Below are positions 4,797 to 53,449 of a stretch of 64,000 nt of DNA, piece by piece (position 1 is the stretch's first letter; every line of letters begins with the position of its first letter). The position numbers were made by a program, and so were the translations under genes. Below the pieces are notes generated by a model that did no database searches, was not told the DNA's origin, and saw only the letters and a program-made list of their open reading frames with translations. This DNA is from a virus (Duplodnaviria > Heunggongvirae > Uroviricota > Caudoviricetes): the IMG/VR virus record IMGVR_UViG_3300029548_000183, one strand, 5' to 3'.

Positions 4797-5570
4797 ATGC
4801 AAAAATTAAACAGATTCATACTAGAAAAATCGTATAACGATATAGAAATCAATATGATTAAAGAAAAATTAGATAAAAATTCATATATGTATGATTATTC
4901 CTTAATAGATAATGCAGATATTCCATCATTTGTTAAAAATGATACAGATATACCTGTGGGAAGCATACAGTTTGTAGAAAAATATTTAAATATAAAAGAA
5001 AATCCAATAGAACTACCTCCTTATTTAAGGACTGATGAATTTTTGAAAAGAGATTATAAATTTGTAACATGGGATAAAGTACCAAGACAGGGTATGTTTT
5101 TCCTTAAAGACGTTACTAATTTAAAGGAGTTCAGCAAAGTAGTAAATGCTGAATTTGAGGTAAATGATGAATTGTGGAATTATGAAAGAAAAAATGAGTT
5201 CGATAACACTTTAGTCTTAGATAAAAATGCAACTTATTTGGTTAGTAGCACATTTCCTATACTTTCTGAATATAGAGTGTATGTTTTTCAGGGAGAAATA
5301 GATACCATATCTTTATACAATGGTGATGCAACTGTATTGCCGGATATGGATTTAATAAAGAAAGCTGTTTACTTAATTAATAACAATGAAGAATATTTGG
5401 ATTCATATACCATAGATGTAATGGTAGGAAAAGAAGGCACAGCATTAATAGAAGTACATAATTTTACATCCTGTGGCTTGTATTCAACATTATGGGGTAA
5501 TAATCTGTTAACAGCATATAAAGATGGAATAAAATATCTAAAGAAAGATAATCATAAATTAGAAATTTAA
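4797..5570 (+). CDS. putative ATP-grasp-like enzyme
   Basis: RBS AAGGAGA before ATG. The C-terminal ..GTALIEVHNF.. segment resembles the ATP-grasp fold core; weak call. Confidence 0.35.
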   Translation: MQKLNRFILEKSYNDIEINMIKEKLDKNSYMYDYSLIDNADIPSFVKNDTDIPVGSIQFVEKYLNIKENPIELPPYLRTDEFLKRDYKFVTWDKVPRQGMFFLKDVTNLKEFSKVVNAEFEVNDELWNYERKNEFDNTLVLDKNATYLVSSTFPILSEYRVYVFQGEIDTISLYNGDATVLPDMDLIKKAVYLINNNEEYLDSYTIDVMVGKEGTALIEVHNFTSCGLYSTLWGNNLLTAYKDGIKYLKKDNHKLEI

Positions 5571-6135: not shown

Positions 6136-6190
6136 AAAAAATTGAAAAAAATATAATAAAAGCAGAAACTCATCAAAAAAAGCATCAAAA

Positions 6191-6620
6191 ACACAGTTGC
6201 AAAAAATGGTGATTTTTGGCATTATGATATTATAATTGCAACAAGAGAGGAAATGTTCCACCAATCCGAATCACCACCCCGGATATTACTTTCTTCTCTT
6301 GTAAAAATACAAGAGGAAAAATAGTTAAAAAGTTAATTTTTCATTTAATAATTTCTTTCTTATAAATATATAAAACAGCTGCCGGTCCTCTTGGGCAGTT
6401 GGAACCGTGGAATCATTGTTTTGACAAACTTACATGACTCATCCCCCAATAAACGCTCTCATGTAAGTGCCGGCTCATCCCGGCTGATTCCAATAGACAA
6501 GGCAAAACTTGTCATGAGTGGCAGCAAAGAGACACTCCTTAACTCTTTGCAAACTCCTATTATTATTTAGACGAACGGATAAGAAAAAGATCATGGTAGC
6601 CACTCCCATGGTCTTTTTTA
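6191..6620 (+). ncRNA. candidate structured non-coding RNA (paralog of the 41617-42215 region)
   Basis: No ORF. Starts with the shared motif AAAAACACAGTTGCAAAAAAT. Shares blocks AAATACAAGAGGA, CCTCTTGGGCAGTTG..GAATCATTG and the hairpin module GTGCCGGCTCATCCCGGCTGATTCCA with 41745-42215. Confidence 0.3.
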
Positions 6621-7094: not shown

Positions 7095-7110
7095 AACCAT
7101 ATTATAAATG
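7095..7110 (+). promoter_or_regulatory. conserved promoter-proximal motif AACCATATTATAAATG
   Basis: One of more than 20 near-identical copies. Each lies 20-60 nt after a terminator and 20-70 nt before an RBS, always on the same strand as the downstream gene. Confidence 0.5.
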
Positions 7111-9236: not shown

Positions 9237-9303
9237 TGTCATTGAAAAATGTAACCATATTATAAATGTAAACATTAATAATGGGAGATTGGAGTAAATT
9301 ATT

Positions 9304-11518: not shown

Positions 11519-12013
11519 ATGGAAAGAAATTTTACAATAAAGCCAAGCAATAACCCTATAGAAGTAAAGGTAGAAACAAATAATATGGTGCCTGAATTAA
11601 CTAAAAGTTCAAATGTATATTCAAAGGTAGCTATGTATTGGGCAATAGCCTCACTTATCATTGTGCCTATAATAAATATTCTGTCAGGATTTATTAAGCC
11701 ATTAAGTGCAATATCCAATAAAATATTTTTAGGAACAATAATTTATGCAATTTTATCCTTCATTATTATAATGAAATTAGGACATAAGATGGCACCTTTA
11801 GGAATAGATCCAATAAATAGAATTAACAAATTACAAAAAGAACTAGAAAACAGTGAACAGTTCCCAGCAAATATTTTTAAAAAGTTTGATGCAAATGAAT
11901 TTAAAAATTGGGATAAAGACTATATTCTTATAAAAACAGAAATAGATGATAAAAAGAAAACCGTAAACATGAATGTATATGTCCCATATAATTCATTGGT
12001 ATTATTGCCTTAA
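11519..12013 (+). CDS. hypothetical membrane protein
   Basis: RBS AAAGGAGGA; two TM segments. Confidence 0.5.
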   Translation: MERNFTIKPSNNPIEVKVETNNMVPELTKSSNVYSKVAMYWAIASLIIVPIINILSGFIKPLSAISNKIFLGTIIYAILSFIIIMKLGHKMAPLGIDPINRINKLQKELENSEQFPANIFKKFDANEFKNWDKDYILIKTEIDDKKKTVNMNVYVPYNSLVLLP

Positions 12014-12354
12014 ATATAAAATAAAAAACAGGAGGTTTATAAAAGTCAACAACCCATCACTAAAGTAGTGTACTTGCAATAGCAAGTGGTTGATTAGCCT
12101 AAATACTTTGAGGACTACGTTACCATAGAATACATAGTCACCAGTGGATACTTCTCACGTCCACTGCTCTGAGAAGCCAAGTAAACATCTCTGAAGGGTA
12201 AGGAGAAGTCGGAGCCGTTAAAACCCATGGATAACATTGGCGATGAGAACCTACCACATTCATTTACTCATATATCTGGATGTGAGAGTGACATGGAGTG
12301 GATTTCCACTTCGATTGTCACATTTTAGTAACCGGAAGAAAGGAGAATTTTTGG

Positions 12355-12654
12355 ATGAATACTGAAGATATAGTAATTATAGTGTTTGTATCGTTATGGA
12401 TTATAGGGCTAATAACTGGGTACTTTTTGTACATAAAGAAAGAAACTAGTTCTTTCCGCATTAATAAGATGACATATGTTCTACCTAACCTTACATTTGC
12501 AATTTGTTTTGTATTTTGCAAGTTTATTATGAATTATGATTTAAAAGATTTTCTTCTGGAAGATGGAATTATGAGTTTAATTATATTTCTACTTTTATTT
12601 GACCCGGAGGAACAAAAAATAATTAATAACGAAATTAAGAGTCATATTTTTTGA
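12355..12654 (+). CDS. small membrane protein
   Basis: RBS GAAAGGAGAA before ATG 12355. Confidence 0.4.
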   Translation: MNTEDIVIIVFVSLWIIGLITGYFLYIKKETSSFRINKMTYVLPNLTFAICFVFCKFIMNYDLKDFLLEDGIMSLIIFLLLFDPEEQKIINNEIKSHIF

Positions 12655-16720: not shown

Positions 16721-16736
16721 TAACCATATTAAATAT
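16721..16736 (+). promoter_or_regulatory. conserved promoter-proximal motif (AACCATATTAAATATG variant)
   Basis: Part of a ~80-bp promoter/5'UTR module nearly identical to 28703-28780. Confidence 0.5.
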
Positions 16737-16778
16737 GAAACAAATTAATAATTGGAGTTAAATGAAAGGAGAAAAAGT

Positions 16779-18984: not shown

Positions 18985-20241
18985 TTAAGGAAGACTTTCT
19001 ATCAGCACCTCTTCTTCTATCACTTCTGCTTTTGGATCAATTATTGATTCCTCTATGTACGCATTTTGGGATTCCACTGTTCCCATACCTGCCCAATTTT
19101 GTCTAATGCATTCTATCAACCAACCTGTTACATTTCTAACATTATTTGCATTATTTAACAATTGACCTGCTTCATCTATTATATGTAAATCGTATCCTGC
19201 ACATTCTGCAACAGCTCTTGCATCAGAAACTTTCAAATCATAAGTATCAGATACATATTCAATTATGGCATTGATTCTTTCCATGTCCTTCTCATCATAC
19301 TTGAACATCTTCTGAGCTCGTTCTCTTATTTCTAACATGTTCTGATGATTTCTTGTATTTCTAAATATGGTGAATACATATTTTTTAGGTCTTCCGTATC
19401 CTCCAACTTCTTCATACTCAAAATCTATGTCCGTTAATTCTCTTATCTCTTTTTGTGCAACATCTATTACTTTTTCTCGTAGGGCATAAGTTTGCTTATA
19501 CTTATTTTTGTCCTTTCCTTTTAATTTAGACATTATTTTTTCATAGTCCTTACATCCCTGACTCATTAATATTTTTGCCTCATTGTTTTGAGAGTCATTT
19601 AAATCATAAATACCTAATTTGAATCTTAATTCACATTCATCAATTTCAACTACAACACTATTTTTAAAAGCTAATTTTCTCAATAAAAAAGATTCTTTTC
19701 TAAACATCTCATACATTTTCATTGAATATTTTGACCTCATGGGAATGGTATTTGTGGAACTAAATACAGTAAACCCAATACCCTTTCGCTGAAGATTAGT
19801 AAGAAAAGGCGTAACACTAGGAGCAAATTTTATTTCAACACCTCGTCTTTCTATGTAATGGGCTTTTTCTATCAATACATAAAACCCTAGATTCATTCCC
19901 TCTTCATTTATCCCCTCAAAATAAAAGGTATTATTGTTTGATAAATCAAATACGGCTCTCTTAACCTGACTGTAAATGGAATTTCCCTTCACTCCCAATG
20001 CTTGTTTTAATTCCCTGATTGGAATAAAGACACCAAGCCCTTTATCTGGTGGAACTTCTTCAAATGGATTTATTTTTGCCAATGCTACATTCAATAATTT
20101 CATGCCATTTAAAGTTAAATTATAACTACTTGTAATTAACGGATTGGATTTTACTATCGTGAATGGAGATGGTAATTCATTTTGACCAACCAACTCCATT
20201 GTTACTGTATCATTTTCCACTACTGGTACATCATTTGGCAT
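18985..20241 (-). CDS. plasmid replication initiator, Rep_3 (RepB-like) family
   Basis: N-terminal IVKSNPLITSSYNLTLNGMKLLNVALAKINP matches the Rep_3 signature (vvKsNdLieasY.LtlnEqrlil); iteron array lies upstream. Confidence 0.8.
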   Translation of the reverse strand: MPNDVPVVENDTVTMELVGQNELPSPFTIVKSNPLITSSYNLTLNGMKLLNVALAKINPFEEVPPDKGLGVFIPIRELKQALGVKGNSIYSQVKRAVFDLSNNNTFYFEGINEEGMNLGFYVLIEKAHYIERRGVEIKFAPSVTPFLTNLQRKGIGFTVFSSTNTIPMRSKYSMKMYEMFRKESFLLRKLAFKNSVVVEIDECELRFKLGIYDLNDSQNNEAKILMSQGCKDYEKIMSKLKGKDKNKYKQTYALREKVIDVAQKEIRELTDIDFEYEEVGGYGRPKKYVFTIFRNTRNHQNMLEIRERAQKMFKYDEKDMERINAIIEYVSDTYDLKVSDARAVAECAGYDLHIIDEAGQLLNNANNVRNVTGWLIECIRQNWAGMGTVESQNAYIEESIIDPKAEVIEEEVLIESLP

Positions 20242-21140: not shown

Positions 21141-21282
21141 TAATCTTCAAAAAATTTTTTTATATATTTGTAAAAAAAATCACTTACATGGATTTGTGTA
21201 CAAGTTAGAAAACAGATCATCATTTTATTGGCAAAAAAATAATTTCTTAGAGAAATAAATTCATCTTTTAAGGTAAATAATT

Positions 21283-22285
21283 AACCAAAAAAGTTGAATT
21301 TCAGGGAAATCTATGTTGCACTTCTGCTTTTTCTTCATAATAAATAAAATTTTGAAAAAAACAAAATAAAACTTTTGTAGTTATTAATTAACCAAAAAAG
21401 TTGAATTTCAGGAAAAACTATATTGGTCTACTTCTTTTGCTTCATAATAAAAAGGATTTTTTAATGACAAATAAAACTTTTAAGGTTATTATTAACCAGA
21501 AAAGTTGAATTTCAGGAAAAATTATATTAGCTTTCTACTTCTGATACATTATAAACAGGATGTTGGGTAAGAACAAAATAAAACTTATGGGGTTAACATT
21601 TAACCAAAAAAGTTGAATTTCAGGAAAAACTATGATGCTTTTTTGCTTTTGCTACATAATAAAAGGGATTGCTTTAAGTAAAATAAAACTTTTAAGGTTA
21701 TTATTAACCAAAAAAGTTGAATTTCAGAAAAAACTATGTTGTTCTACTGCTTTTGCTACATAATAAAAGGGATTGCTTTAAGTAAAATAAAACTTTTAAG
21801 GTTATTATTAACCAGAAAAGTTGAATTTGATAAAAAAAACAAGTTGCTCTCCTGCTTTTACTACACAATAAAAGGGCTTTTTGGGAAAAAAACAAAATAA
21901 AACTTTTGTAGTTATTAATTAACCAAAAAAGTTGAATTTTGGAAAAAACTATGTTGTTTTTCTGCCTTTACTTCATAATGAAAGGAATTTTTTAATAAAA
22001 ATAAAACTTTTATAGTTATTAATTAACCAAAAAAGTTGAATTTTAGAAAAAAACTATGTTGTTCTACTGCTTTTACTACATAATAAAAGGGCTTATTTTA
22101 ATGGAAATAAAACTTTTAAGGTTATTATTAACCAGAAAAGTTGAATTTGATAAAAAAAACAAGTTGCTCTCCTGCTTTTGCCACACAATAAAAGAAATTA
22201 TTTGGAAGAACAAAATAAAACTTATGGGATTAATAATTAACCAAAAAAGTTGAATTTTGGAAAAGTATCATATACTATTGCATAT
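21283..22285. repeat. iteron array: ~10 direct repeats of ~105-110 bp, each containing the core AACCAAAAAAGTTGAATTTCAG
   Basis: Repeat starts near 21283, 21379, 21493, 21601, 21706, 21810, 21920, 22027, 22130 and 22238. Array lies upstream of the divergent Rep_3 gene. Confidence 0.7.
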
Positions 22286-22869: not shown

Positions 22870-23637
22870 CTATTTTTCATTTATAAATTCATCAACTAAT
22901 TTGACATAGTCTTTTGCACTTGTACAATTAGGCATGTAATTTAATAACAGTTCTCTTTTGGTTTGCGCTTCCTTGACACTAATGCATCTTCTAATTGTTG
23001 TTTTAAAAAGTTTTGTTCCTATTTGTCCAGCTATTTCTTCCAAAGTTTTTTTAACTTCTCTGGAAAGAATAGTTCGTTTATCATCCATGACAAGAAGTAA
23101 TCCTGCTATATTTAAATTTGGATTAAATCTTTTTTGTGTCTTCTTTATTGAGTCATATAATTGAGCTAATCCCTGTACTCCATATTGATCTGCTGTTATT
23201 GGGATGATAATATCATCAACTGCAACAAGGCAATTAATCAATAATGTATTTAAACTTGGACCAGTATCAATAACTAAATAATCATATCCATTTAAATTGG
23301 AAATGGAATCTCTCAATTTAAAGAAACCATCAACATCTCCATTTAATATTTTGTCAGCATTTGAAAGAAGACTATCAGATGCAATAATATCTCCTGCTTC
23401 TGTATGCTGAATTGCTTCATTAATGTCAACCGGATTTTCTTCTTCAAGAATTACATCATATAAGGTAGTTATACCATCTCCTGTATTAGCTCTGTATGTA
23501 TTAGTGCTGTTGCACTGTGGATCTGCATCTATAAATAAAACCTTATATCCTTTTGTTTGCAATACATTTGCTATTGCTGTGGCTGTGGATGTTTTTCCAA
23601 CTCCACCTTTTTGATTTGCTATAAGTATAGTTCTCAT
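22870..23637 (-). CDS. parA: ParA-family partition ATPase
   Basis: Deviant Walker A motif KGGVGKT in ..IANQKGGVGKTSTATAIA..; typical ParA length. Confidence 0.9.
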   Translation of the reverse strand: MRTILIANQKGGVGKTSTATAIANVLQTKGYKVLFIDADPQCNSTNTYRANTGDGITTLYDVILEEENPVDINEAIQHTEAGDIIASDSLLSNADKILNGDVDGFFKLRDSISNLNGYDYLVIDTGPSLNTLLINCLVAVDDIIIPITADQYGVQGLAQLYDSIKKTQKRFNPNLNIAGLLLVMDDKRTILSREVKKTLEEIAGQIGTKLFKTTIRRCISVKEAQTKRELLLNYMPNCTSAKDYVKLVDEFINEK

Positions 23638-24295: not shown

Positions 24296-25190
24296 GATTG
24301 GCAAACAGTATTAAAGTACCAAGGTACTGTCTTTCAGGAATGTATAGACAGTACTAAAGTATCAAAGTACCAAGGTACTATCTTTTGGAAGCATATAGAA
24401 GGTACTAAAGTACCAAAGTACCAAGGTACCAAGGTACTGCCTTTCAGGAATGCATAGACGATACTAAAGTACCAAAGTACCAAGGTACTACATTTTGGAA
24501 GTATATAGACGGTACCAAAGTACTAAGGTACTACATTTTAGAAATACATAAACGGTACTAAGGTACCAAAGTACCAAGGTACTGCCTTTCAGGAATGCAT
24601 AGACGGTACTAAAGTACCAAAGTACCAAGGTACTACATTTTAGAAATACATAAACGGTACTAAGGTACTAAAGTACCAAGGTACTGCCTTTTAGGAATGC
24701 ATAGACAGTACTAAAGTACCAAGGTACTACATTTTGGAAGCATATAGACGGTACTAAAGTACCAAAGTACCAAGGTACTACATTTTGGAAGTATATAGAC
24801 GGTACCAAAGTACTAAGGTACTGCCTTTTAGGAATGCATAGACGGTACTAAAGTACCAAAGTACCAAGGTACTACATTTTGGAAGCATATAGACGGTACC
24901 AAAGTACTAAGGTACTACATTTTAGGAATATATAGACGGTACTAAAGTACCAAAGTACCAAGGTACTACATTTTGGAAGCATATAGACGGTACCAAAGTA
25001 CTAAGGTACTACATTTTAGGAATATATAAACGGTACTAAGGTACTAAAGTACCAAGGTACTGCCTTTTGGAAGCGTATAGACAGTACTATAGTACCAAGG
25101 TACCAAGGTACTGCCTTTCAGGAATGTATAGACAGTACTAAAGTGCCAAAGTACCAAGGTACTACATTTTAGAGACTATACAAACAATTA
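24296..25190. repeat. array of ~17 tandem ~45-58-bp units, each ..ATAGACGGTACYAAAGTACCAAGGTACT..; candidate parS centromere
   Basis: Seen directly. Built from the same GTACYAA heptads as 23690-23880; no unique spacers. Confidence 0.6.
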
Positions 25191-26443: not shown

Positions 26444-26523
26444 TAAAAAACGAGAAAAGTTTTAAAAAAAAGAGTCATTTTATGGCTCTTTTTTTAAATT
26501 AAAAAGCAACCATATTATAAAAG

Positions 26524-26790
26524 AATGCAAAACACAGTTGCAAAAAATCAACATTTCTTAAATTTGGCGTAATTCAGGCTAATCATTGCGGAATCATTGA
26601 TAATTCTTATTCTGGAGATAACGATCAGTGGAAATTTCCTGCAATTGCATTAAGAAATACAAAAATCCATAAAAATGATAGGATTTGTCAGTTCAGGCTT
26701 ATGAAAAAAATGGAAGATGTGACATTGGAAGAAGTTGAACATCTTAATGAGAGAGACAGGGGTGGCTTTGGCTCAACTGGAACCAATTAG
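26524..26790 (+). pseudogene. dut: dUTPase remnant (C-terminal ~85 codons only)
   Basis: The frame encodes ..[35 protein letters not shown]. These are dUTPase motifs III-V. Motifs I/II and a start codon are absent, and the frame opens at a stop within the promoter motif. Confidence 0.6.
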
Positions 26791-28290: not shown

Positions 28291-28668
28291 TTGCAATTGC
28301 AAGAGGAAAAGGAGAAATGTAATATTATAAAAACAATATGTATTAATGTAAAAGATACAATTAATAGTCCATCTGCATTAACAAGAGAACAAGGGAGAAT
28401 CATTCATAAAATCATAAAAGAAAAGATACTAGGCGGCTATAAAGTTGAACTTGATTTTCAAGATGTGGAAAGTTTAATAATACTATTTTTAAATGTAGCC
28501 ATTGGAAAATTATATGAACATTTTTCGAGTGAAGATTTACAAGAAAGATTAAAAGTAATAAATATCCCACAAGGAAAATCATTATATTTCAATATTGTCA
28601 TTGAAAATGCAAAAAAATGTTATTTTATCCCCAAAACTGTTATCCCCAATAATAAAGAATGCAGTTGA
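28291..28668 (+). CDS. hypothetical protein (no in-frame ATG; TTG 28291 or ATT 28324 as start)
   Basis: 125-codon frame without Met. RBS GGAGAAA 6 nt before ATT 28324. Confidence 0.35.
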   Translation: MQLQEEKEKCNIIKTICINVKDTINSPSALTREQGRIIHKIIKEKILGGYKVELDFQDVESLIILFLNVAIGKLYEHFSSEDLQERLKVINIPQGKSLYFNIVIENAKKCYFIPKTVIPNNKECS

Positions 28669-28706: not shown

Positions 28707-28723
28707 ATCTATATCCAAAACAT

Positions 28724-28739
28724 AACCATATTAAATATG
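28724..28739 (+). promoter_or_regulatory. conserved promoter-proximal motif (AACCATATTAAATATG variant)
   Basis: Within the duplicated promoter/UTR module. Confidence 0.5.
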
Positions 28740-33317: not shown

Positions 33318-33391
33318 TATTTTGAAAAGAAGATTCTTATTAAAAGCAGATAAGGTCTTCTTTTTTTTATGAAATTTCAAAGCATATTTTC

Positions 33392-33407
33392 AACCATATT
33401 ATAAATG
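33392..33407 (+). promoter_or_regulatory. conserved promoter-proximal motif AACCATATTATAAATG
   Basis: Followed at 33427 by AAAAACACAGTTGCAAAAAAT and a hairpin-rich leader before infC. Confidence 0.5.
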
Positions 33408-33575
33408 TGGCAAAAAGTAGTCAAAAACACAGTTGCAAAAAATGAGCAAAAACTTGTTTTTGATATAGTATTTGTCAAAAGGCAGTCCACGGTTCGGCTC
33501 CGTTAGGCTAAGTGGGATGAGCAGATACATTTCCAACTGCCAATAAAACTAAAAATTAAGAAAGGAAAATTTTTA

Positions 33576-34070
33576 ATGAAGAAAATTTTTTCAAATTATG
33601 AAATCAGAGAAAAAGAAGTTTATGTGGTTAAGGACAAAATGGAAGGTCCTGTACTAAAAAAAGAAGCAATGAAAGAGGCTCAGGAGCAGGAACTTGATCT
33701 TGTTCAGATTGCAGTCAAGGATGGAGTTCCAATCTGCAAATATCTTGACTATAACAAGTATGTGTATGATTTAAAGAAAAAAGAAAAGGGAAACAAGCAT
33801 AAAAAACAGGAAGTAAAGGAAATAAAGATTACTGCAAACACAGAAGAACATGACATAAAAATTAAGGAAAACAAAATAAGAAAAATGCTTGAAAAAGGCT
33901 GTGAAATTAAAATAACAATGATGTTTCGTGGCAGGGAAAAGGCTAACAAGAAATTTTATGTTCCTAAACTTGAATCAATGGTTGAAGACTTAATGGATGT
34001 TGCAGTTGTGTCAAAAAAAATAAAAATTACTGATTACAATGCATTTGTGATTCTTAAATCAAACAGGTAA
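33576..34070 (+). CDS. infC: translation initiation factor IF-3 homolog
   Basis: By-eye alignment to bacterial IF3 over its full length: ..IREKEVYVV..ELDLVQIAVKDGVPICKYLDYNKYVY..QEVKEIKITANTEEHDIKIKENKIRKMLEKGCEIKITMMFRGRE.. Confidence 0.8.
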   Translation: MKKIFSNYEIREKEVYVVKDKMEGPVLKKEAMKEAQEQELDLVQIAVKDGVPICKYLDYNKYVYDLKKKEKGNKHKKQEVKEIKITANTEEHDIKIKENKIRKMLEKGCEIKITMMFRGREKANKKFYVPKLESMVEDLMDVAVVSKKIKITDYNAFVILKSNR

Positions 34071-34083
34071 AAGGTATTTCATA

Positions 34084-34866
34084 ATGAAAAAAAGAAAAAT
34101 AATATTTTTAACAATTGCATACACAATGCTAACATCTTTTGTTGGTTGTCAAAAAATAAACATAAGGTCTCCAGAAAAAACTGAACAGACAACAGAATTT
34201 TTTTCTGCAAGAGAGACTGAATTAATTACACAACCAATAATAAACATAAGTAGCAAGGATAAATCAAAACCAAAGAAATTTAAATACTTAAATATAGAAG
34301 AAACTCCAAAAGAATTAACGGTTGAATCGTATGATGGTTCATGCAAGTTTCTGATAATTCCTGATGAATCCAATGAATTGCCAGTAACAGGAATTACAGG
34401 TTCAGCATTTTTTGGAAGTAAAGCAGGATTTAAGTATGTGATTTTTGGAAAGAACATAAAAGAAATAGGTAAAAATGCTTTTTGCCAACAGAAAAATTTA
34501 AAATACATTAATTTTAATGATTGCTTGGAAAATATTGATGATGCTGTTTTTTTATCAACAGGTCTAAAAGGAACAATAGTAATTCCTAACAGTGTTAAAT
34601 ACATAGGTAATGGTGCATTTGCTGACACAAAAATAGAAAACATAATTGTAGGAAGTGGTGTGAAAAAAATATCAGCAGTTGCATTCAGTGTTGGTCCAAC
34701 ATTAAAAACAGTTACATTTACGAGCATGAACATTGAGTTTGATGATGACAATAAGAAAGATGGAAACATATTCTATGGTTGTCCAAACTTAACAATTATT
34801 GCACCAATAGGTTCAACAGCAGAAAAATATGCCAAAAAGCACAACATTAGCTTTAAGGAATTATAA
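34084..34866 (+). CDS. lipoprotein with BspA-type leucine-rich repeats
   Basis: Signal peptide with lipobox FVGC. Repeats ..IGKNAFCQQKNLKYINF.., ..IGNGAFADTKIENIIV.. and ..ISAVAFSVGPTLKTVTF. Confidence 0.6.
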   Translation: MKKRKIIFLTIAYTMLTSFVGCQKINIRSPEKTEQTTEFFSARETELITQPIINISSKDKSKPKKFKYLNIEETPKELTVESYDGSCKFLIIPDESNELPVTGITGSAFFGSKAGFKYVIFGKNIKEIGKNAFCQQKNLKYINFNDCLENIDDAVFLSTGLKGTIVIPNSVKYIGNGAFADTKIENIIVGSGVKKISAVAFSVGPTLKTVTFTSMNIEFDDDNKKDGNIFYGCPNLTIIAPIGSTAEKYAKKHNISFKEL

Positions 34867-34951: not shown

Positions 34952-35560
34952 ATGGGATACATGATATTCAATGTGTATGCTAAACACCATCAAAAATGGA
35001 TGGATAATTTTACATATACGCTTAAGTACACAAAAAAAGGGTTCTACTTCGTTTTCAAGGTAAAAAAAGAAGACATAAAAAAGATTAAAAGAGAGATAAG
35101 AAAACATCATTTGAGATATGCAATGTATGAGGAAAAATGGGAAAGATCAAGTTCCTACAGAAAGAAGTTTTTTAAGGCAAATAAAGGTCCATACAGATGC
35201 CGTTATTGTAACCAAATTCTAAAGAAGGAATACCTTGTGGTTGACCATATTTATCCAATTGCAAAAGGAAAGTATAACAAAGAAAGCAGAAAATTACTAA
35301 ATCTAAGAGGAATTGAAAATGTTAATGATACAAGAAATCTGGCAGCAAGTTGTTTTAAATGTAATGAAAAAAAGGGAGACAAACTTGGGCTATGGTACAT
35401 AAGGGGACTACTTGGACAATATGACTGGTATTGGAAAACATTAAAAATTTTAAAAATTTTGATTATTATTGTAATTATTTTAAGCCTGATTTTCATTTTT
35501 CTGCATTTTTCCAACCTTAATTTCCACTTGCAAAAAATTATAAAAAATCCATTACGCTAA
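34952..35560 (+). CDS. HNH endonuclease with C-terminal transmembrane anchor
   Basis: RBS GGAGGTGA 7 nt before ATG 34952. HNH core CRYCNQ..VVDHIYPIAKGG-like..N..NL..SCFKCNEKKGDK. C-terminus ILKILIIIVIILSLIFIFL is hydrophobic. Confidence 0.7.
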   Translation: MGYMIFNVYAKHHQKWMDNFTYTLKYTKKGFYFVFKVKKEDIKKIKREIRKHHLRYAMYEEKWERSSSYRKKFFKANKGPYRCRYCNQILKKEYLVVDHIYPIAKGKYNKESRKLLNLRGIENVNDTRNLAASCFKCNEKKGDKLGLWYIRGLLGQYDWYWKTLKILKILIIIVIILSLIFIFLHFSNLNFHLQKIIKNPLR

Positions 35561-35596: not shown

Positions 35597-35612
35597 AACC
35601 ATATTAGATATG
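35597..35612 (+). promoter_or_regulatory. conserved promoter-proximal motif (AACCATATTAGATATG variant) upstream of the cas12a-like gene
   Basis: Same cassette motif as elsewhere. Confidence 0.45.
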
Positions 35613-35641: not shown

Positions 35642-38600
35642 ATGGATAATTTTAAAAATTTTACGGATTTAAAACAGAAACAGATTACAATCTGTCAGAA
35701 ACTCATTCCTGTTGGAATGACAAGAAAAAACATTGACATTTTTAATGCAATGGAAAGTGATGAATATGTCTCTGAAAATAAGGGTGAAATCAGAAAGTTA
35801 ATTAAGCTATTGGCCAGAGAAAAAATGGAAGAAGGAATAAGCAAGGCAAAATCAAATTTAAGTTTTACAAAACTTCTTGGCTTGATGAATGAGTACAATG
35901 AAACTGATTCTGAATATAAGATGGAAGTCCTTGAAAGACTCTTTGATGAAAGAGTAAGACTTGCCAACATTATTGCATCAGAATTTAAGACAAAATTTTC
36001 CTGTGCTGACACAATAACTACTCTTCTTCCTGAATATGTTAATGAACATTTCAATGGAAGTGAAAAGGAAGAATACCTAAACCTTCTTGAAGAGGTTAAG
36101 AAACATCAGGCAATGTTTAACAGGTTTGAGTCAAACATTGACAACATGTTTTCACCAATGCTAAAAAAAGGCTCTGTTGTATACAGAATGTTGGTTGAAA
36201 ATACTCAGATATTTCTTAATAACAAATCAAAAACTGATAAGGAAGATTTTAAGAAAATCATTGATTTGTCAGAACTTGATGATGAAACAAAAAGCATCAT
36301 CATCAAAAGATGCATTGACATTGATGAAGAGTCATATGCAGAAGTCCTAATTCAGGAAGACATTGACGGATACAACTATTGCATTGGAATGCTTAATAGT
36401 GAAAGCAAGATGTTTTGTGATAAAAACAAATTAAACTACAAGGACTTTGAACTTAAAAACTTATATAAGGCAATGCTCTGTGAAAAGACTGCATTCTTTG
36501 AAAAAATTGATTCATTTAAAAATGATGAGCAGATTGTGGATTCCTACAATTCATTAATGTCAAACATTAATGCAAAAAACATTGCAAAAACATATGAAAA
36601 GTGCATGGGACACATGGATGGAATGCACATAAAACCATCAGTTCTTTCATTTTATTCTAATGTTGTGTATGGCAAATGGAATGTTGTAAGAAACTGCATA
36701 AGAGCCTACTGTCAGGATGAAATGAATTCAATAAAAAAGAATAAAAAGAGTCTTGATGATTATTATGAAGCTTTCATTAAGAAAGGCATAACAATTAACC
36801 AGATAAGTAACATTGTATCATCATATGCTGAAGAACTTGAGCTAAAGGTCTTTGAGAAAGATTTATCAGATACAATATACAGTTATCTTTTACATAAATA
36901 TGCATGTGTGGAAGAGGAAAAAACTCCATTGAAGTCTGATGAAAGCAAAAATGCAGAAACAATCAGGGTTGAACTTGAACATTGCATTCAGGCATTAAGG
37001 TTACTAAAAATTTATGACACTGAAAATGACAATCTCAATGAAGAAATGAAAACATTGATTGATGAAATCATTGATGAATTGTCACCTGCCATATTATTGT
37101 TCAACATGACAAGAAACTACATAACTGCAAAACCTACTCCAAAGAAAAAACTTGCATTGACATTCAATACTGCAAGCTTTGGAGGAGGGTGGAGTGAAAG
37201 TGTTGAAAGTTCAAAGAGAGTGAGTTTACTAAAGGATGATGAAGGAAACAAGTACCTGATGATATACAACATAACAGGATGTAAGGCTAACAATGTTTCC
37301 ATGGTATCAGTTACGGAAAAAGTAAAGGCGAATTTACTTAATGACAAGAAGAACATTGACTGTTACAGAAAACTTGTATACAGTGCGGTTCCTGATGCAT
37401 TAAAGGACATATCAAGACTTTTCATTAACAAACTTGAAGATGAAGAAATGATTAAACGCTACAAGAATAAGGAACACAAGGAAAACAGGGAATTTCTTAA
37501 TGAACTGATAAGTGTCTTAAAGAAAAAGATTAATGAGCATCCTACATGGTCAAGATATGGCTTTAAGTTTAGGGATGAATACGATTCCTTTGATGATTTT
37601 TGCGATGACATTAATAATCAGGGCTACTATGCAAAATGGAAATACATTCCAAAGACAGTAATTGATGAGTATGTCGAAAATGGATGCATTTATCTGTTTA
37701 AGATTTACAACAATGATTATAGTGCATACAAAAAGGCAGGTTCAAAGGTTAAAACCCATACAAGATACCTTGATTACTTATTTAGTGATGAAAATGAAAA
37801 AACAGATCTCATCAAATTACTTGGAGGTCTTGAAGTATTCTATAGAGAGCCTCAGATTAAGAATCCTTATGTACATAAAAAAGGTAGCATTCTTGTAAAC
37901 AAGAAATACAAGGATGGAACAATCATTGGTAATGAATATAAGGAGTTATTTAAAAAGGCACAGACAACAAAACTTGACAATGTGTATACAAGAGCGTGTC
38001 CATATGACATCATAAAGGACAAGAGATATACAATGGAACAGTTTGAAGTTCATTTTCCAATATTGATTGGTAATGACAATAATCCTGAAAATTTCATTGA
38101 AATGAGTAAACACTTTGTTGAAAATGCAAAGCACACGGTTGTTGTTGGTAGAAACAGGGACAATCTTTTATATGTGTCTGTTTATGAGGAAAATGCCTTA
38201 ATTCATTCAAAATCACTTAATAAAGTAAATGGAACTAATTACAAGGATAAGTTATTCATAATTGAAGATGCAAAGAAAAACAATGCAAGAAACTGGAAAA
38301 CAATAGGCTCAAATGATGCATTGCTGACAGGATACATTTCAGCAGTAATAAAAGATATCACAGACCTTGTTCTTAAATACAATGCAGCTCTCGTCATTGA
38401 AATGGGAAGTAACTTGGCAAAAGACAGAAATCTCTTGCCAAACAGAGTATATACAAAGTTTAAGGAAGCACTACTTCACAAATTGGAATTTCTAATTGAT
38501 TCAGAAAAGGCTGATGATGAACCGGGTGGATTATTACATCCTTATCATTTGACTGAAATTAATAAGAAAAATCCAAAGAGAAGTATTGATACTCCACACA

Positions 38601-39181
38601 ATGGAATAGTGTTACTGGTACCTTCATTTTATTGTGGTTTAACTGATCCGGAATCAAATCTTTGTAATCTTACTTATGCAAGAACAAAAAAGGAAAAGGA
38701 AGAGGTTCTTAAAAAAATTAAGGGATTTAAGTACAATAAGGAAGAAAGTATTTTTGAATTTGTTTATGACATGTCATTATTCAATCCTAACATGAAAGGA
38801 AAGTTTACTTGTACAAGCAATGGAGACAGACTGGTTGATACAGAAAATGATAAGGTGGTAATGGACTTAACACATTATATTGAAGATAAGTTAAAATCAC
38901 TTGGAATCGAGTATAAGTCAGGAAATGAAATTAATCTCATTTCTGATGATGGGTTAACAAATGAAACTTTATTTAACTGTATTAGATACACATTACAGAT
39001 GAACAATGGTAATTTCTTCATTTCTCCTGTTACGGGATTTTGCTATACTTGTGATGGTTGTTCAAACATTTCTTATAATAGAAATTTGTACAACAGATCA
39101 AAACTGGTTAAGGAAAACATAAAGAGTGGAAAGAAACTTAAGTTCATGACAATCAAGGACATTTACAAACCTCAGTCTTAA
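35642..39181 (+). CDS. cas12a: Cas12a (Cpf1)-family protein; RuvC and Nuc catalytic residues appear substituted (predicted nuclease-deficient)
   Basis: Cas12a hallmark blocks found by eye: QKLIPVGMTRKNI (WED-I), RNYITAKPTPKKKLALTFNTASFGGGW, GCIYLFKIYNNDYSAYKK..THTRYLDYLFSDENEKTDLI..LEVFYREPQ, YDIIKDKRYTMEQFEVHFPI, and the RuvC-II block YNAALVIEMG with Glu retained. The RuvC-I position reads TVVVGRNRDNLLYV where IGIDRGERNL is expected. The Nuc block reads TLQMNNGN (Arg replaced by Asn). No DADANGAY-like RuvC-III motif is present. Confidence 0.85.
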   Translation: MDNFKNFTDLKQKQITICQKLIPVGMTRKNIDIFNAMESDEYVSENKGEIRKLIKLLAREKMEEGISKAKSNLSFTKLLGLMNEYNETDSEYKMEVLERLFDERVRLANIIASEFKTKFSCADTITTLLPEYVNEHFNGSEKEEYLNLLEEVKKHQAMFNRFESNIDNMFSPMLKKGSVVYRMLVENTQIFLNNKSKTDKEDFKKIIDLSELDDETKSIIIKRCIDIDEESYAEVLIQEDIDGYNYCIGMLNSESKMFCDKNKLNYKDFELKNLYKAMLCEKTAFFEKIDSFKNDEQIVDSYNSLMSNINAKNIAKTYEKCMGHMDGMHIKPSVLSFYSNVVYGKWNVVRNCIRAYCQDEMNSIKKNKKSLDDYYEAFIKKGITINQISNIVSSYAEELELKVFEKDLSDTIYSYLLHKYACVEEEKTPLKSDESKNAETIRVELEHCIQALRLLKIYDTENDNLNEEMKTLIDEIIDELSPAILLFNMTRNYITAKPTPKKKLALTFNTASFGGGWSESVESSKRVSLLKDDEGNKYLMIYNITGCKANNVSMVSVTEKVKANLLNDKKNIDCYRKLVYSAVPDALKDISRLFINKLEDEEMIKRYKNKEHKENREFLNELISVLKKKINEHPTWSRYGFKFRDEYDSFDDFCDDINNQGYYAKWKYIPKTVIDEYVENGCIYLFKIYNNDYSAYKKAGSKVKTHTRYLDYLFSDENEKTDLIKLLGGLEVFYREPQIKNPYVHKKGSILVNKKYKDGTIIGNEYKELFKKAQTTKLDNVYTRACPYDIIKDKRYTMEQFEVHFPILIGNDNNPENFIEMSKHFVENAKHTVVVGRNRDNLLYVSVYEENALIHSKSLNKVNGTNYKDKLFIIEDAKKNNARNWKTIGSNDALLTGYISAVIKDITDLVLKYNAALVIEMGSNLAKDRNLLPNRVYTKFKEALLHKLEFLIDSEKADDEPGGLLHPYHLTEINKKNPKRSIDTPHNGIVLLVPSFYCGLTDPESNLCNLTYARTKKEKEEVLKKIKGFKYNKEESIFEFVYDMSLFNPNMKGKFTCTSNGDRLVDTENDKVVMDLTHYIEDKLKSLGIEYKSGNEINLISDDGLTNETLFNCIRYTLQMNNGNFFISPVTGFCYTCDGCSNISYNRNLYNRSKLVKENIKSGKKLKFMTIKDIYKPQS

Positions 39182-39287: not shown

Positions 39288-39502
39288 AGTTAAAGAAAAG
39301 CAAATGTCTGCTGATATGCAGATTAGATTGTGCCACTCATTCCATCAGAAGTTAAAAGAAGACGAAATGTCTACCATCATGTAGATCATAACAAGTAGCA
39401 TATCCCAATATACAGTAAAAGGAAGTAAAATGTCTGCCATTATGTAGATATGGTGTGATTACTCTGGATTTCAATGAGAAAAAATTCTGCTGTTGATGAA
39501 AT
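39288..39502 (+). CRISPR. mini CRISPR array: 3 Cas12a-type repeats plus a degenerate terminal repeat, 3 spacers of 26-27 nt
   Basis: Period of 63 nt. Repeats of ~36 nt end in AATGTCTGCTGATATGCAGAT, AATGTCTACCATCATGTAGAT and AATGTCTGCCATTATGTAGAT (Cas12a-like UCUAC-loop-GUAGAU hairpin). A 4th copy at 39470-39502 is degenerate. Confidence 0.75.
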
Positions 39503-39628
39503 ATATTCCGTAAGCTTGTAAAATCATGAAAAGAAAAAATTATTCAAAAACTAAATAGAGTCAGTTAATCTGGCTCTTTTCTTTTTGTAGAATGCAAAAA
39601 TTGAGATAACAAACAAAATGGTATAATA

Positions 39629-39726
39629 AAAAATAAAAAAAGTAATGTCTGCTGTTATGCAGATTCAGTGTGTGTAATAGGACAAACTATATTAAAAGAA
39701 AACAAAATGTCTGCTATTGCGTAGAT
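39629..39726 (+). CRISPR. second mini-array: 2 repeats, 1 spacer (26 nt), with its own promoter-like and terminator sequences
   Basis: Repeats end GTAATGTCTGCTGTTATGCAGAT and AAAATGTCTGCTATTGCGTAGAT. TTGAGA-N15-TATAAT lies upstream (39601-39627). A hairpin plus T-run lies downstream (39740-39766). A separate terminator at 39558-39596 divides it from array 1. Confidence 0.65.
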
Positions 39727-39833
39727 ATAATAAGTAAAAATTGGAGTCAAAAGTAGACTCCTTTTTTTGTACAAAAATAAACAAGGAAACAACCATATTA
39801 AGTATAAGAAAACAATGAAAGAAGGAAGAAAAG

Positions 39834-40691: not shown

Positions 40692-40786
40692 TAAAAAAAA
40701 ATTGTAAAAAATACAAGAAATTTTATTTTCATAAAATTTTCAACCATATTAGTAATGAAACAAATGATAATAGGAGGATTAATTTT

Positions 40787-42215: not shown

Positions 42216-42221
42216 GGGCTT

Positions 42222-42295
42222 GGATCATTAGCTCAGCAGGTTGGAGCGGTTGTCTCATAAGCAACAGGTGGTAGGTTCGACTCCTACATGATCCA
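42222..42295 (+). tRNA. tRNA with anticodon CAU (elongator Met or lysidine-dependent Ile2 type)
   Basis: Cloverleaf folded by hand. Acceptor GGATCAT/ATGATCC with 7 Watson-Crick pairs; D-arm GCTC-AGCAGGTTG-GAGC; anticodon arm GTTGT-CTCATAA-GCAAC; T-arm GTAGG-TTCGACT-CCTAC; discriminator A; no encoded CCA. The paired 1-72 position argues against an initiator. Confidence 0.85.
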
Positions 42296-42504
42296 TTAAA
42301 AAAGGAATATTATTCCTTTTTTTTTGCTCTTTTTCTCTGATTAAACAAAAAAGAGTATACAGCCATATTATAAGTGAAGGGCAAAAAGTCCTTCTTCTAA
42401 GTATTACAAATTTTAAATTCAAAAGAAAGGAGGATCAGGGATTAAACTGAATATCAATATTCTACCCATCTGTTATTCTCACAGATGGGTCCCTGTTTTT
42501 ACGA

Positions 42505-43419: not shown

Positions 43420-43585
43420 AGAAGTTAGGGCAAATGCTTTTTAACACGCCGTGAGCAAGAAATCCCCCACCTCTACAGGTGGTGGAATGAATTGCGATAA
43501 ACACGGCATTTTATTGACTTTTGCATCTCATAGTATTATAATCATAGTGTAATCAGTCGTAAACGTTGTAAAGGTTATAAATTAT

Positions 43586-44002
43586 ATGAAATTAGATAAT
43601 AATAATCATTCGGTATTCATGCTCCATTATCACCTTATTATGTGCATTAAATATCGTAATAAAGTTATAGATGATAAAATCTCAAACCGTCTCAAAGAAA
43701 TATTTGAGAAGATAGCTCCTTCCTATAACATCACGTTAGAGGAATGGAATCACGACATAGACCATGTACATATACTATTTCGAGGACAGCCCAATACGGA
43801 AATAAGTAAATTTATCAATGCTTATAAATCTGCAAGCAGTAGACTTATCAAAAAAGAATATCCTCAGATACGTAAATATCTCTGGAAAGAGATGTTCTGG
43901 TCACAGAGCTTTTGTCTGTTAACCACGGGCGGTACTACGGTAGATATTATTAAGCAATATATCCAATCTCAAGGTAAGAAAGATGGCAAACAGAGCAATT
44001 AA
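43586..44002 (+). CDS. tnpA: IS200/IS605 family transposase TnpA (HUH Y1)
   Basis: HYHLIMC..YRNKV.. and ..HDIDHVHILFRGQP.. (HuH motif), ..ASSRLIKKEYP..LWKEMFWSQSFCLLTTGG.. over 138 aa. Confidence 0.85.
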   Translation: MKLDNNNHSVFMLHYHLIMCIKYRNKVIDDKISNRLKEIFEKIAPSYNITLEEWNHDIDHVHILFRGQPNTEISKFINAYKSASSRLIKKEYPQIRKYLWKEMFWSQSFCLLTTGGTTVDIIKQYIQSQGKKDGKQSN

Positions 44003-45128
44003 GTACAGAGCATATCCTACAACTAAACAATCTGTCATGTTTGCTAAGACCTTTGGCTGTTGTCGTAAGGTCTATAATCTCATGCTTTCAGATAAGATTG
44101 AAGGCTACAAGGCTACTGGTGAGTTTCCTACTGTTACACCTGCTAAGTATAAGAACGATTATCCTTATCTTAGAGAAGTAGACAGCCTTGCTCTTGCCAA
44201 TAAGCAGATGGACTTACAGGAGGCTTTTCGTAATACATTTAGTAAATCTCGTAAGAAGAAAAACGGTTTTCCTAAATTCAAGTCTGCCAAACATAGTCGT
44301 AAGTCCTATACTACAAACAATCAAAAAGGCACAGTTGCTATCATAGATAACAAATGTATTAAGCTCCCTAAGATTGGAAAGGTAAAAGCTGTTATCCATC
44401 GTGTGCCTGACGATAGTTGGACAATTAAATCGGCTACCGTATCACAGGAATCTGACGGCAAATATTATATCTCCGTACTCTTTGAGTTTGAGAATACCGT
44501 AAATCCTTATGTAGCCGATAAAACTAATGCCATCGGGTTAGATTATGCTTCCGACGGCTTATACGTAGATAGTAATGGCAATACAGGTACTAATCATAAG
44601 TATTATCGTGAGAGCCACAACAAGCTTGCTAAGGCTCAGCGTAAGCTATCACGTATGCAAGGCTCTAAGAAACACGAGGTTAAGTCCAATAATTATATAA
44701 AGCAACTCCGTAAAGTGAATAAGATACATAGGCATATCGCTAATCAGCGTTTGGATAACCTGCATAAGATATCTACTGAGATAGCCAATCAGTATGATGT
44801 TGTTTGTGTAGAATCCCTAAATATGAAAGTTATGTCAAATAAAGGTTTTGGTAATGGCAAAGCTACTCTTGATAACGGATATGGCATGCTCCTGTCTATG
44901 CTTGAATACAAGTTATCTGACAGGAATAAGTATCTCATCAAGGTAGACAAGTGGTTCCCGTCATCACAGATATGTCATTGTTGTGGTATGCTACATCCTG
45001 AAATGAAGAATTTAGCCATCCGTAAAATGACATGTAATTGTGGTCTTACAATAAGCCGTGACCAGAACGCTGCTATCAATATCCTAAAGGAAGGATTACG
45101 ACTACTGACTGAAGTAGCCCGAAACTAA
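43983..45128 (+). CDS. tnpB: TnpB (IS605 OrfB) RuvC-like RNA-guided nuclease family protein
   Basis: C-terminal zinc finger ICHCCGM..CNCG, followed by ISRDQNAAINILKEG (RuvC-III). Start overlaps the end of tnpA. Confidence 0.85.
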   Translation: MANRAIKYRAYPTTKQSVMFAKTFGCCRKVYNLMLSDKIEGYKATGEFPTVTPAKYKNDYPYLREVDSLALANKQMDLQEAFRNTFSKSRKKKNGFPKFKSAKHSRKSYTTNNQKGTVAIIDNKCIKLPKIGKVKAVIHRVPDDSWTIKSATVSQESDGKYYISVLFEFENTVNPYVADKTNAIGLDYASDGLYVDSNGNTGTNHKYYRESHNKLAKAQRKLSRMQGSKKHEVKSNNYIKQLRKVNKIHRHIANQRLDNLHKISTEIANQYDVVCVESLNMKVMSNKGFGNGKATLDNGYGMLLSMLEYKLSDRNKYLIKVDKWFPSSQICHCCGMLHPEMKNLAIRKMTCNCGLTISRDQNAAINILKEGLRLLTEVARN

Positions 45129-45295
45129 ATATGACAGTAGGGATGGAATAGCCCAAACTTATACGCCTGTGGACACTGTGTAAGACGAGCCGTTACGTAT
45201 CATTGTAGCCAGTGCAGTAGTGGTTGAAGCAGGAAGCTCCGACTTCTATAAGTCAGAGTAGTTCACATGTATGTGCATTAATAATAGATGTAATT
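45129..45295 (+). ncRNA. probable omega-RNA / right-end region of the IS605 element
   Basis: GC-rich structured segment directly 3' of tnpB, as is typical for TnpB guide RNAs; boundaries not determinable by eye. Confidence 0.35.
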
Positions 45296-53095: not shown

Positions 53096-53449
53096 AAATA
53101 AAAAAGAAAAAAGCAAGGCAATGACCATATTATGAATGAAAGAAAACATAAACAAATGCAACAACCATATTATGTATAAAACAAAATAAAAAAGAATTTC
53201 AAAAATTACAGTATGCAAAAAAATAGGATTTTTCAGTTTTTGATATACTTTTGCTAAATAAAAAAGAGCCAAATGCATTGCAAGTGGCTCCTACCTGTGA
53301 ATGAACATTTTGTAGTCATAATATGTCCATTCAAAGTGTATCAAAAGTAGAAAGAAAAATCAATAATAATAGAAAGGAACTAAAAAAAATTATGGAAAGA
53401 AAAGAATTAGAAATAGAATTAGAAAAAAAAGAACAAAATCATTAATGAT

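Follow-up and report, generated by a model that had tools for sequence, protein, structure and literature searches.

The DNA analyzed here is a stretch of 64,000 nucleotides (nt), called the window below, from the IMG/VR virus record IMGVR_UViG_3300029548_000183, which is classified in the Caudoviricetes. A gene at positions 33576-34070 encodes a full-length, two-domain homolog of translation initiation factor 3 (IF3), the product of infC in bacterial chromosomes. The reading that we prefer, and to which we give about an even chance, is that this gene specifies a working paralog of IF3 and belongs to the conserved backbone of a family of large plasmid-like elements, characterized by a Rep_3 initiator, ParA and iterons, in Gram-positive gut bacteria.

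The homology covers both domains of the factor. In Pfam, IF3_N (PF05198) matches residues 7-71 (profile positions 2-68 of 70; E 3.9e-17), and the ribosome-binding domain IF3_C (PF00707) matches residues 79-161 (profile positions 2-84 of 86; E 2e-19). The product scores 112.5 bits against the NCBIfam model TIGR00168 for infC, the equivalog cut-off of which is 60 bits. It aligns end to end with the solved IF3 chains of Thermus, Geobacillus, and E. coli (E 1e-23 to 1e-25) and, over residues 1-162, with the family of virus-encoded IF3s PHROG 9787 (profile positions 1-166 of 168; E 3e-35). In an AlphaFold model with a mean predicted local distance difference test score of 84.7, two α/β domains are connected by a helix at residues 59-73, and full-length IF3 chains were the top matches when this model was submitted to Foldseek. 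The modeled C-domain superimposes on 1tig with a root-mean-square deviation of 1.7 Å over 85 residues (TM score 0.87), and the model yielded TM scores of 0.64-0.67 against 6o6d and 1tif. Full-length homology to IF3 had been claimed in the original prediction, with a search against IF3_N and IF3_C as its proposed check; both domains were found nearly complete, and the TIGR00168 score and the modeled fold agree with the claim. The similarity thus extends over both domains, and the refuting outcome, a match restricted to one of them, did not occur.

To map individual residues, the window protein was aligned with E. coli IF3, the numbering of which is used here, and with a background of 125 IF3 sequences. 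N16, I19, A46, D52, C65, D69, K72, Y75, K94, H105/D106, K110, and G121 are retained, as are F130, R131, G132, R133, and E134. In the background set, D106 and R133 are conserved in 100% of the sequences, K94 in 99%, G132 in 98%, K110 in 96%, E134 in 90%, Y75 in 87%, and R131 in 78%. D106 and K110 have been implicated in ribosome contact and R131 in mRNA contact and start-codon discrimination, and Y75 was rated critical in IF3 (PMC3401457). The residues tied to ribosome and mRNA contact and to fidelity, of which the Arg and Tyr of the C-domain had been singled out for inspection beforehand, are all kept (Y75, D106, K110, and R131-G-R133-E134), and Y75, D106, K110, R131, R133, and E134 are also unchanged across the 10 alleles of the gene that are described below. 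The majority residue is lost at R25, P58, P62, I67, G71, and P176, as well as at F117, K123, H137, G167, and R168, the replacements of which are given below.

The most notable of these departures is that at R25. This position is occupied by Tyr16 of the window protein, without any gap in the alignment from N16 to R25. Whereas Arg is present here in 65% of the 125 background sequences and Tyr in none of them, Tyr was found in all 10 alleles and in a sister protein (P0008; see below). R25 was reported to be invariant in the alignment of Singh et al., and it touches G19, ψ55, C56, and A57 of the initiator-tRNA elbow (PMC9723500). In E. coli, the R25A and R25A/Q33A/R66A variants showed more initiation at AUU and AUA and tolerated an initiator tRNA devoid of the three G-C pairs, and start-codon fidelity was not restored by R25A alone or in combination with Q33A and R66A (PMC9723500). 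The natural replacement of R25 by Tyr may be taken as a concrete hint of changed discrimination of start codons or initiator tRNAs.

The gene has a fixed place in its genetic surroundings. In all 10 contexts that were returned for a nearby backbone protein, representing 10 samples and contigs of 45-221 kb, it is located between a gene for a DUF5684 membrane protein and a gene for a leucine-rich-repeat (LRR) lipoprotein, and because its position is unchanged in 10 of 10 contexts, it is considered a backbone gene of the element. The identical IF3 protein is encoded on 22 contigs. A set of 33 contigs could be reduced to 10 alleles of leader plus gene, and the reading frame is intact in 32 of the 33. 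The amino-acid changes among the alleles are mostly conservative and leave the functional residues untouched; the non-conservative ones, Y8H, E12G, G50D, and D65G, are located in the N-domain and the linker. The idea that all amino-acid changes fall in the N-domain was refuted by the larger allele set, in which 8 affect residues 1-79 and the other 6 are located between residues 80 and 164.

The IF3 of the window forms a lineage of its own, with no other sequence exceeding 50% identity to it. An exhaustive HMMER scan yielded 7,722 IF3 relatives, of which just the sister protein P0008 scored below 1e-30; its identity of 50% is the highest to any sequence outside the family. The gene for P0008 starts at ATG, adjoins a gene for a UvrD-like helicase on a contig of 27% G+C (L008), and is preceded by the motif ACCATATT, which resembles a repeated motif of the window. 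No relative of this IF3 was found in the GTDB representative genomes or in IMG/VR.

The replicon looks like a plasmid. The window has a G+C content of ~30% and contains genes for a Rep_3 initiator (18985-20241, minus strand) and ParA (22870-23637, minus strand), with two fields of iterons around rep-parA (21265-22264 and 24313-25172). One of these fields consists of ~9 copies of a 104-107-nt unit; the other is based on GTACCAAAGTAC repeats, arranged in a 43/51-nt unit that is present ~17 times. The sign of the GC skew flips over 18-24 kb, matching the expectation for a replication origin. Genes for a tyrosine recombinase, HicAB, DNA methyltransferases, SPFH/flotillin proteins, sortase-type adhesins, and Cas12a are also present, as are an IS200/IS605 element and a HEARO RNA. 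Virion and conjugation genes were neither found among the larger open reading frames (ORFs) of the window that were scanned nor flagged by precomputed Pfam labels in ~20 kb of flanks; the typing of the replicon covers the window and ~20 kb of flanking contig out of an element of 143-232 kb. The latter are the sizes that related contigs from many samples reach, as determined by exact-protein look-ups. Contig labels such as GUYA17, ZHAN15, and YUJU15 presumably refer to human-gut cohorts, the names of which they resemble. These cohort-like labels suggest that the large plasmid-like element is common in human-gut metagenomes. Since sortase and SpaA-domain adhesins are encoded in the flanks, the host should be Gram-positive. 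Its assignment to the Lachnospiraceae is probable and relies on a single clue, the identity of the IS element. This IS200/IS605 element (TnpA and TnpB; 43438-45266) shows 96-97% DNA identity to copies in Lachnospiraceae and Eubacterium bins from rumen and gut. Its TnpB is 98% identical to the protein in those bins and 85-92% identical to Butyrivibrio copies.

IF3 governs the stringency of start-site choice and is kept at a fixed ratio to ribosomes by a start-codon feedback, i.e., it holds down its own translation via the non-canonical start codons of infC (AUU, AUA, or AUC). In the window, the ATG at 33576 is preceded by AGGA at a distance of 9 nt, and the frame contains no earlier ATG, GTG, or TTG, which confirms the ordinary AUG start noted previously. 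In two chromosomal relatives, AGGAGG is followed by ATC (L002) or by ATT/ATA (L006), and neither has a canonical start upstream. That chromosomal infC starts differently, as had also been stated, was borne out here, and the contrast with AUG is real because L002 and L006 start at ATC and ATT/ATA. With their AUG starts, the plasmid IF3 and its sister should escape the IF3 feedback loop. Also the genetic context of chromosomal infC is missing, in line with the earlier description: thrS, rpmI, and rplT are absent near the IF3 gene of the window, and likewise in all related contigs, and the neighbors are the genes for the DUF5684 protein, the LRR lipoprotein, and a protein with an HNH motif. The DUF5684 gene upstream is followed by a terminator-like hairpin, which is predicted to set IF3 apart as a transcription unit of its own; a consensus terminator scan did not call this hairpin because its stem is A+T-rich. 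Downstream, no terminator could be read from the sequence between IF3 and the LRR lipoprotein gene. The two genes, the order of which is kept in every related contig, are probably co-transcribed. The HNH-motif gene, which would be the third of the unit, has an alternative start at 34829.

If the paralog works, its C-domain would bind the platform of the host 30S subunit like host IF3 does, thereby enlarging the IF3 pool. The activity of the plasmid factor would add to this pool and so reduce the translation of host infC, whilst the AUG-initiated plasmid gene would ignore the feedback that limits host infC through its AUU, AUA, or AUC start. With the synthesis of host IF3 reduced, the plasmid factor could then become a sizeable share of the pool. 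In addition, the Tyr that replaces R25 should change how the N-domain touches the elbow of the initiator tRNA, and with this contact altered, the plasmid factor may proof-read start codons or tRNAs differently from host IF3. A mobile element supplying an unregulated, slightly different IF3 could shift the balance that the IF3 feedback maintains in its host, and the natural substitution falls on a residue that has been tied to fidelity by E. coli genetics. If it has no such effect, the IF3 would be one more accessory translation gene of a large mobile genome.

Chromosomal infC products (TIGR00168; PDB 5lmn, 5me0, and 8jsg) share the two domains, the Lys-rich linker, the fold, and the key residues with the window IF3, which is 33-44% identical to chromosomal-type IF3s. 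Unlike chromosomal infC, the window gene has an AUG start, lacks thrS, rpmI, and rplT as neighbors, and resides on a Rep_3/ParA replicon; its product differs by Tyr at R25 and by the replacements F117M, K123E, H137N, G167D, and R168Y. A parallel in organization is found in jumbo phages (PHROG 9787), where the IF3 genes of Escherichia phage 121Q (gp47) and of other Asteriusvirus members are likewise stand-alone, initiated at ATG, and part of a large mobile genome. These IF3s, which have been noted as a possible support of phage translation (PMC7824862), are 33-35% identical to that of the window. In 121Q gp47, R25 is kept, and TSGRG is found where the window IF3 has FRGRE. Unlike these phages, the element has genes for plasmid replication and partition, the scanned ORFs and flanks revealed no virion genes, and a search of IMG/VR returned no copy. 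Annotated IF3 genes are also present on plasmid-labeled PLSDB records, such as those of K. pneumoniae (NZ_CP079608.1) and B. finegoldii (NZ_OY725913.1). Of 67 such records, the two opened were rejected as precedents, since both proved to carry thrS-infC-rpmI-rplT operons on chromosome-like records. In the literature searched, no description of a stand-alone plasmid IF3 was found. Thus, the window IF3 joins a known class, i.e., IF3 genes on mobile elements, with a function that we infer from its sequence, and it is set apart by the plasmid-type replicon, its backbone status in a widespread gut element, the AUG start, and the natural replacement of R25 by Tyr.

Several observations weigh against a working paralog. 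Every step beyond homology to IF3 is one of inference. The ribosome-binding site of the gene is among the weakest of the window, and the expression of IF3 may therefore be low. F117M, K123E, H137N, G167D, and R168Y are located at positions that are conserved in most IF3s. The contrast in autoregulation was drawn with the chromosomal relatives L002 and L006 in place of the infC of the host. The 10 alleles show 14 non-synonymous and 5 synonymous substitutions in IF3, corresponding to a ratio of non-synonymous to synonymous rates (dN/dS) of roughly 0.6, while the neighboring genes for flotillin and Cas12a reach 0.06-0.2 at equal divergence; therefore, constraint on the protein is relaxed, or the protein is diversifying. 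Furthermore, one allele (L005 4203-4700, UMGW01011533.1) carries an A8-to-A7 deletion at codon 148, which cuts the final strand of the C-domain short and may reflect either faulty assembly or a genuine inactivation. The high dN/dS, the frameshifted allele, the weak ribosome-binding site, and operon partners, i.e., the LRR lipoprotein and the HNH protein, that are unconnected with translation would also fit an IF3 that was captured long ago and is drifting as a passenger without any role for the element. We nevertheless find this explanation improbable. The intact frames come from many samples, and IF3 is present in every sampled variant while neighboring genes vary. Moreover, all universally conserved IF3 residues are present, the substitutions are mainly conservative, the leader is less variable than its flanks, and a 50%-identical homolog is intact on another A+T-rich contig with the same upstream motif.

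The Tyr at R25 in the window protein, all alleles, and the sister protein, taken together with the behavior of the E. coli R25A variants, could alternatively point to an IF3 of altered fidelity, the relaxed or re-targeted proof-reading of which lets weak or non-canonical plasmid starts through or favors plasmid mRNAs. Consistent with this possibility, all four non-conservative changes among the alleles are in the N-domain and the linker, and at least one gene of the element, encoding a DUF4325 protein, lacks an AUG and has a good ribosome-binding site before AUU. However, this is a single gene, whereas ~60 others start at ATG behind a strong Shine-Dalgarno sequence, and it is missing in several variants that carry IF3. 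Furthermore, contact with the tRNA elbow could persist through stacking of the Tyr, the fidelity residues R131 and Y75 of the C-domain are unaltered, and the tRNA(CAU) of the element is not an initiator. On balance, we regard altered fidelity as the purpose of the gene as unlikely. A more far-reaching variant, in which the element imposes an initiation regime of its own, with the AUG-initiated, R25-to-Tyr IF3 displacing host IF3 by way of the AUU-based feedback of the host and shifting start sites in favor of the element, and with its synthesis set by pairing of its leader with a non-coding RNA from 6236-6620 (see below), strikes us as highly doubtful. Finally, the IF3 fold might have been recruited for another use, such as separating the ribosomal subunits under stress or upon arrival in a new host, or serving as a decoy that shields initiation from a toxin, a defense system, or an antibiotic that targets initiation. 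The odd C-domain surface positions K123E, R168Y, and G167D, the constant linkage to a block of Cas12a and the HNH protein with HicAB and methyltransferases nearby, and the proposal that jumbo-phage IF3s aid phage translation or ribosome rescue (PMC7824862) would be compatible with such a use, but PADLOC defense models gave no match for IF3 or its neighbors (IF3 plus nine other window proteins), the sister gene lies in a different context, and the sequence gives no pointer to a new partner. We therefore lend this idea little credence, and a working paralog in the backbone of a plasmid-like element remains the explanation that we prefer.

Table 1. Coordinates of the IF3 gene and of associated features in the window.
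Feature	Position	Strand	Remarks
IF3 homolog	33576-34070	+	164 amino acids; N-domain residues 7-71, Lys-rich linker helix 59-73, C-domain 79-161
Terminator-like hairpin and T-run after the DUF5684 gene	33324-33368	+	Read from the sequence: GAAAAGAAGATTCTTAT...ATAAGGTCTTCTTTTTTTT
Copy of motif AACCATATTAnnnATG	33393-33409	+	Repeat families D5, D15, D18; promoter-like or regulator site
Promoter-like unit: box AAAACACAGTTGCAAAAAAT, then extended -10 TGATATAGT (33461-33469)	33412-33469	+	Repeat D14
GC-rich leader element, 61 nt	33481-33541	+	Outer 6-bp stem GGCAGU/ACUGCC
Modest Shine-Dalgarno sequence GAAAGGA	33560-33566	+	Weaker than the AGGAG/AGGAGG ahead of most window genes
BspA-type LRR lipoprotein gene	34084-34866	+	Pfam LRR_5, E 3e-18; 13 nt past the IF3 stop
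HNH-motif protein gene, third of the presumed unit	34952-35560	+	Pfam HNH, HNH_5; PHROG HNH families
tRNA(CAU), elongator Met or Ile2 type	42221-42296	+	ARAGORN, Rfam
DUF4325 (STAS-like) gene	28324-28668	+	ORF 28291-28668 without in-frame ATG; downstream of HicAB
Non-coding locus, multi-hairpin	6236-6620	+	Promoter-like unit 6176-6235 ahead; terminator at the end
Inverted-block region shared with the IF3 leader	6394-6481	+	Four exact 9-11-nt blocks

The leader of IF3 contains an element that stands out by its composition (Table 1). With 56% G+C versus 30% for the window, it is the richest 60-nt stretch in G+C, a level reached by 0.02% of the 60-nt windows and comparable to that of the tRNA and the HEARO RNA. 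Among the 10 alleles, 3 of its 61 positions are variable, versus 32 of 195 positions of non-coding DNA on its flanks (p = 0.02). The outer stem is invariant, is present in all folds, and is the only robust part of the structure, since three methods gave three different folds for the inner part. The folding energy shows no excess over that of shuffled sequences (z -0.3 to -0.8). As to covariation, the 10 alleles represent four distinct leader sequences, and the one pair that shows GC, GU, and AU (35-53) was matched in 236 of 500 shuffles and is not significant. RNAalifold proposed yet another inner fold with zero covariation. Searches of Rfam gave nothing at the gathering threshold and chance-level hits only at E up to 10, and the leader pattern was not found in IMG/VR. 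Thus, of the GC-rich hairpin reported for this leader in the original prediction, the G+C richness, the conservation, and the 6-bp outer stem stand, whereas a folding excess, covariation, or a match in Rfam could not be added. The leader probably represents a conserved 5'-terminal element of the mRNA, with a putative role as a stabilizer or control element of the IF3 unit. Structured RNAs ahead of infC are known, i.e., the L20 leader or infC-operon leader RNAs (RF00558), but the window leader does not match this family, whether the gathering threshold is applied or E values up to 10 are admitted, and no terminator-like U-run follows the element. Mimicry of the IF3-binding helix 24 of 16S rRNA was considered because GGCAGUCCACG is like 16S 798-809; this candidate was rejected, as alignment to E. 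coli 16S and 23S rRNA did not exceed the level of shuffled sequences.

Upstream of the leader are two repeated motifs that look like two element-specific classes of promoters or regulator sites. The unit AAAACACAGTTGCAAAAAAT-N19-TGnTAnAAT has five copies in the window (6176, 12684, 26517, 33412, and 45954), and the copy ahead of IF3 predicts a transcription start at ~33475-33478, just ahead of the GC-rich element. The motif AACCATATTAnnnATG is found ~40-50 nt upstream of many start codons, mostly right after a terminator, e.g., at 7095-7110, 9255-9270, 16722-16737, 28722-28737, 35597-35612, 40742-40757, and 53161-53176. At 26521-26790, 89 stop-free codons without any ATG, GTG, or TTG are located in a leader of ~400 nt that follows a AAAACACAGTTGCAAAAAAT unit and precedes the gene at 26972; this segment may be a non-coding RNA.

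The non-coding locus at 6236-6620 sits behind the same promoter class as the IF3 leader, with a AAAACACAGTTGCAAAAAAT copy at 6176. Its first hairpin (6241-6302) has a z-score of -3.1, and its G+C-rich multi-hairpin domain (6376-6560) one of -6.5 on the plus strand. The locus belongs to no Rfam family, and it is 98-100% identical over 16 contigs from other samples, with 100% identity in 10 of the 16. Three of the blocks that it shares with the IF3 leader, of 10-11 nt, are collinear, and because the blocks are inverted, the two RNAs would be complementary if both are transcribed from the plus strand. Two of the blocks join 33486-33495 with 6402-6411 and 33531-33541 with 6394-6404. Co-folding of leader and locus gains -19 kcal/mol, versus -7.5 ± 3.5 kcal/mol for shuffled sequences. 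The cluster of blocks beats 299 of 300 shuffles, but comparable scores are frequent among native segments rich in G+C in this repeat-rich window. The similarity could represent an antisense partner of the leader or an inverted duplicate.

A joint role of IF3 and the tRNA(CAU) of the element in manipulating the discrimination of start codons or initiator tRNAs had been proposed in the original prediction. The hallmarks of initiator tRNAs are a C1×A72 mismatch, three consecutive G-C pairs in the anticodon stem, and A11:U24. The tRNA(CAU) has G1-C72, C11:G24, and the anticodon stem GUUGU/GCAAC, in which there is no run of three G-C pairs. It is, therefore, ruled out as an initiator, and the proposed link fails because none of the three hallmarks is present. 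ORF 28291-28668, which harbors the DUF4325 gene, had been predicted to have no AUG and to start at AUU or UUG behind a good ribosome-binding site. It indeed lacks an AUG, and an AUU is well placed. After AGGAG at 28310-28314 come an out-of-frame mini-ORF, ATGTAA (28317-28322), and then two in-frame candidates, ATT (28324) and ATA (28327). Public gene callers begin the gene at TTG 28291, without a ribosome-binding site, but all TTG codons are upstream of AGGAG, which disfavors UUG and makes AUU 28324, 9 nt after AGGAG, or AUA 28327 the likely start. A general shift toward non-AUG starts was not seen among the ~60 genes of the window, which nearly all have ATG after a strong AGGAG, with this one AUU/AUA candidate.

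The Cas12a gene (35642-39181) matches five of five Cpf1 Pfam domains and, in related contigs, invariably accompanies the IF3 block. It is followed, at 39290-39730, by two short, degenerate CRISPR mini-arrays with ~five spacers, which were overlooked by repeat finders. Only the 3' hairpin of their repeats is conserved (e.g., GTCTGCTGATATGCAGAT, GTCTACCATCATGTAGAT, and GTCTGCTGTTATGCAGAT), and cas1, cas2, and cas4 are absent from the locus. The HEARO (IscB-associated omega) RNA at 12045-12254 scores above the Rfam gathering threshold; no IscB or HNH nuclease was recognized beside it because the adjacent ORFs, 11519-12013 and 12298-12654, have no Pfam match. Elsewhere in the window, 4797-5570 encodes an ATP-grasp protein of the R2K clade (Pfam R2K_2/R2K_3), which we take to be the RimK/Cdc123 clade, and 803-1819 encodes a class-I glutamine amidotransferase or peptidase C26 protein. 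These two products could form a pair of peptide ligase and hydrolase, and together with IF3 and the tRNA, they may be among several gene products of the element that touch the translation apparatus.

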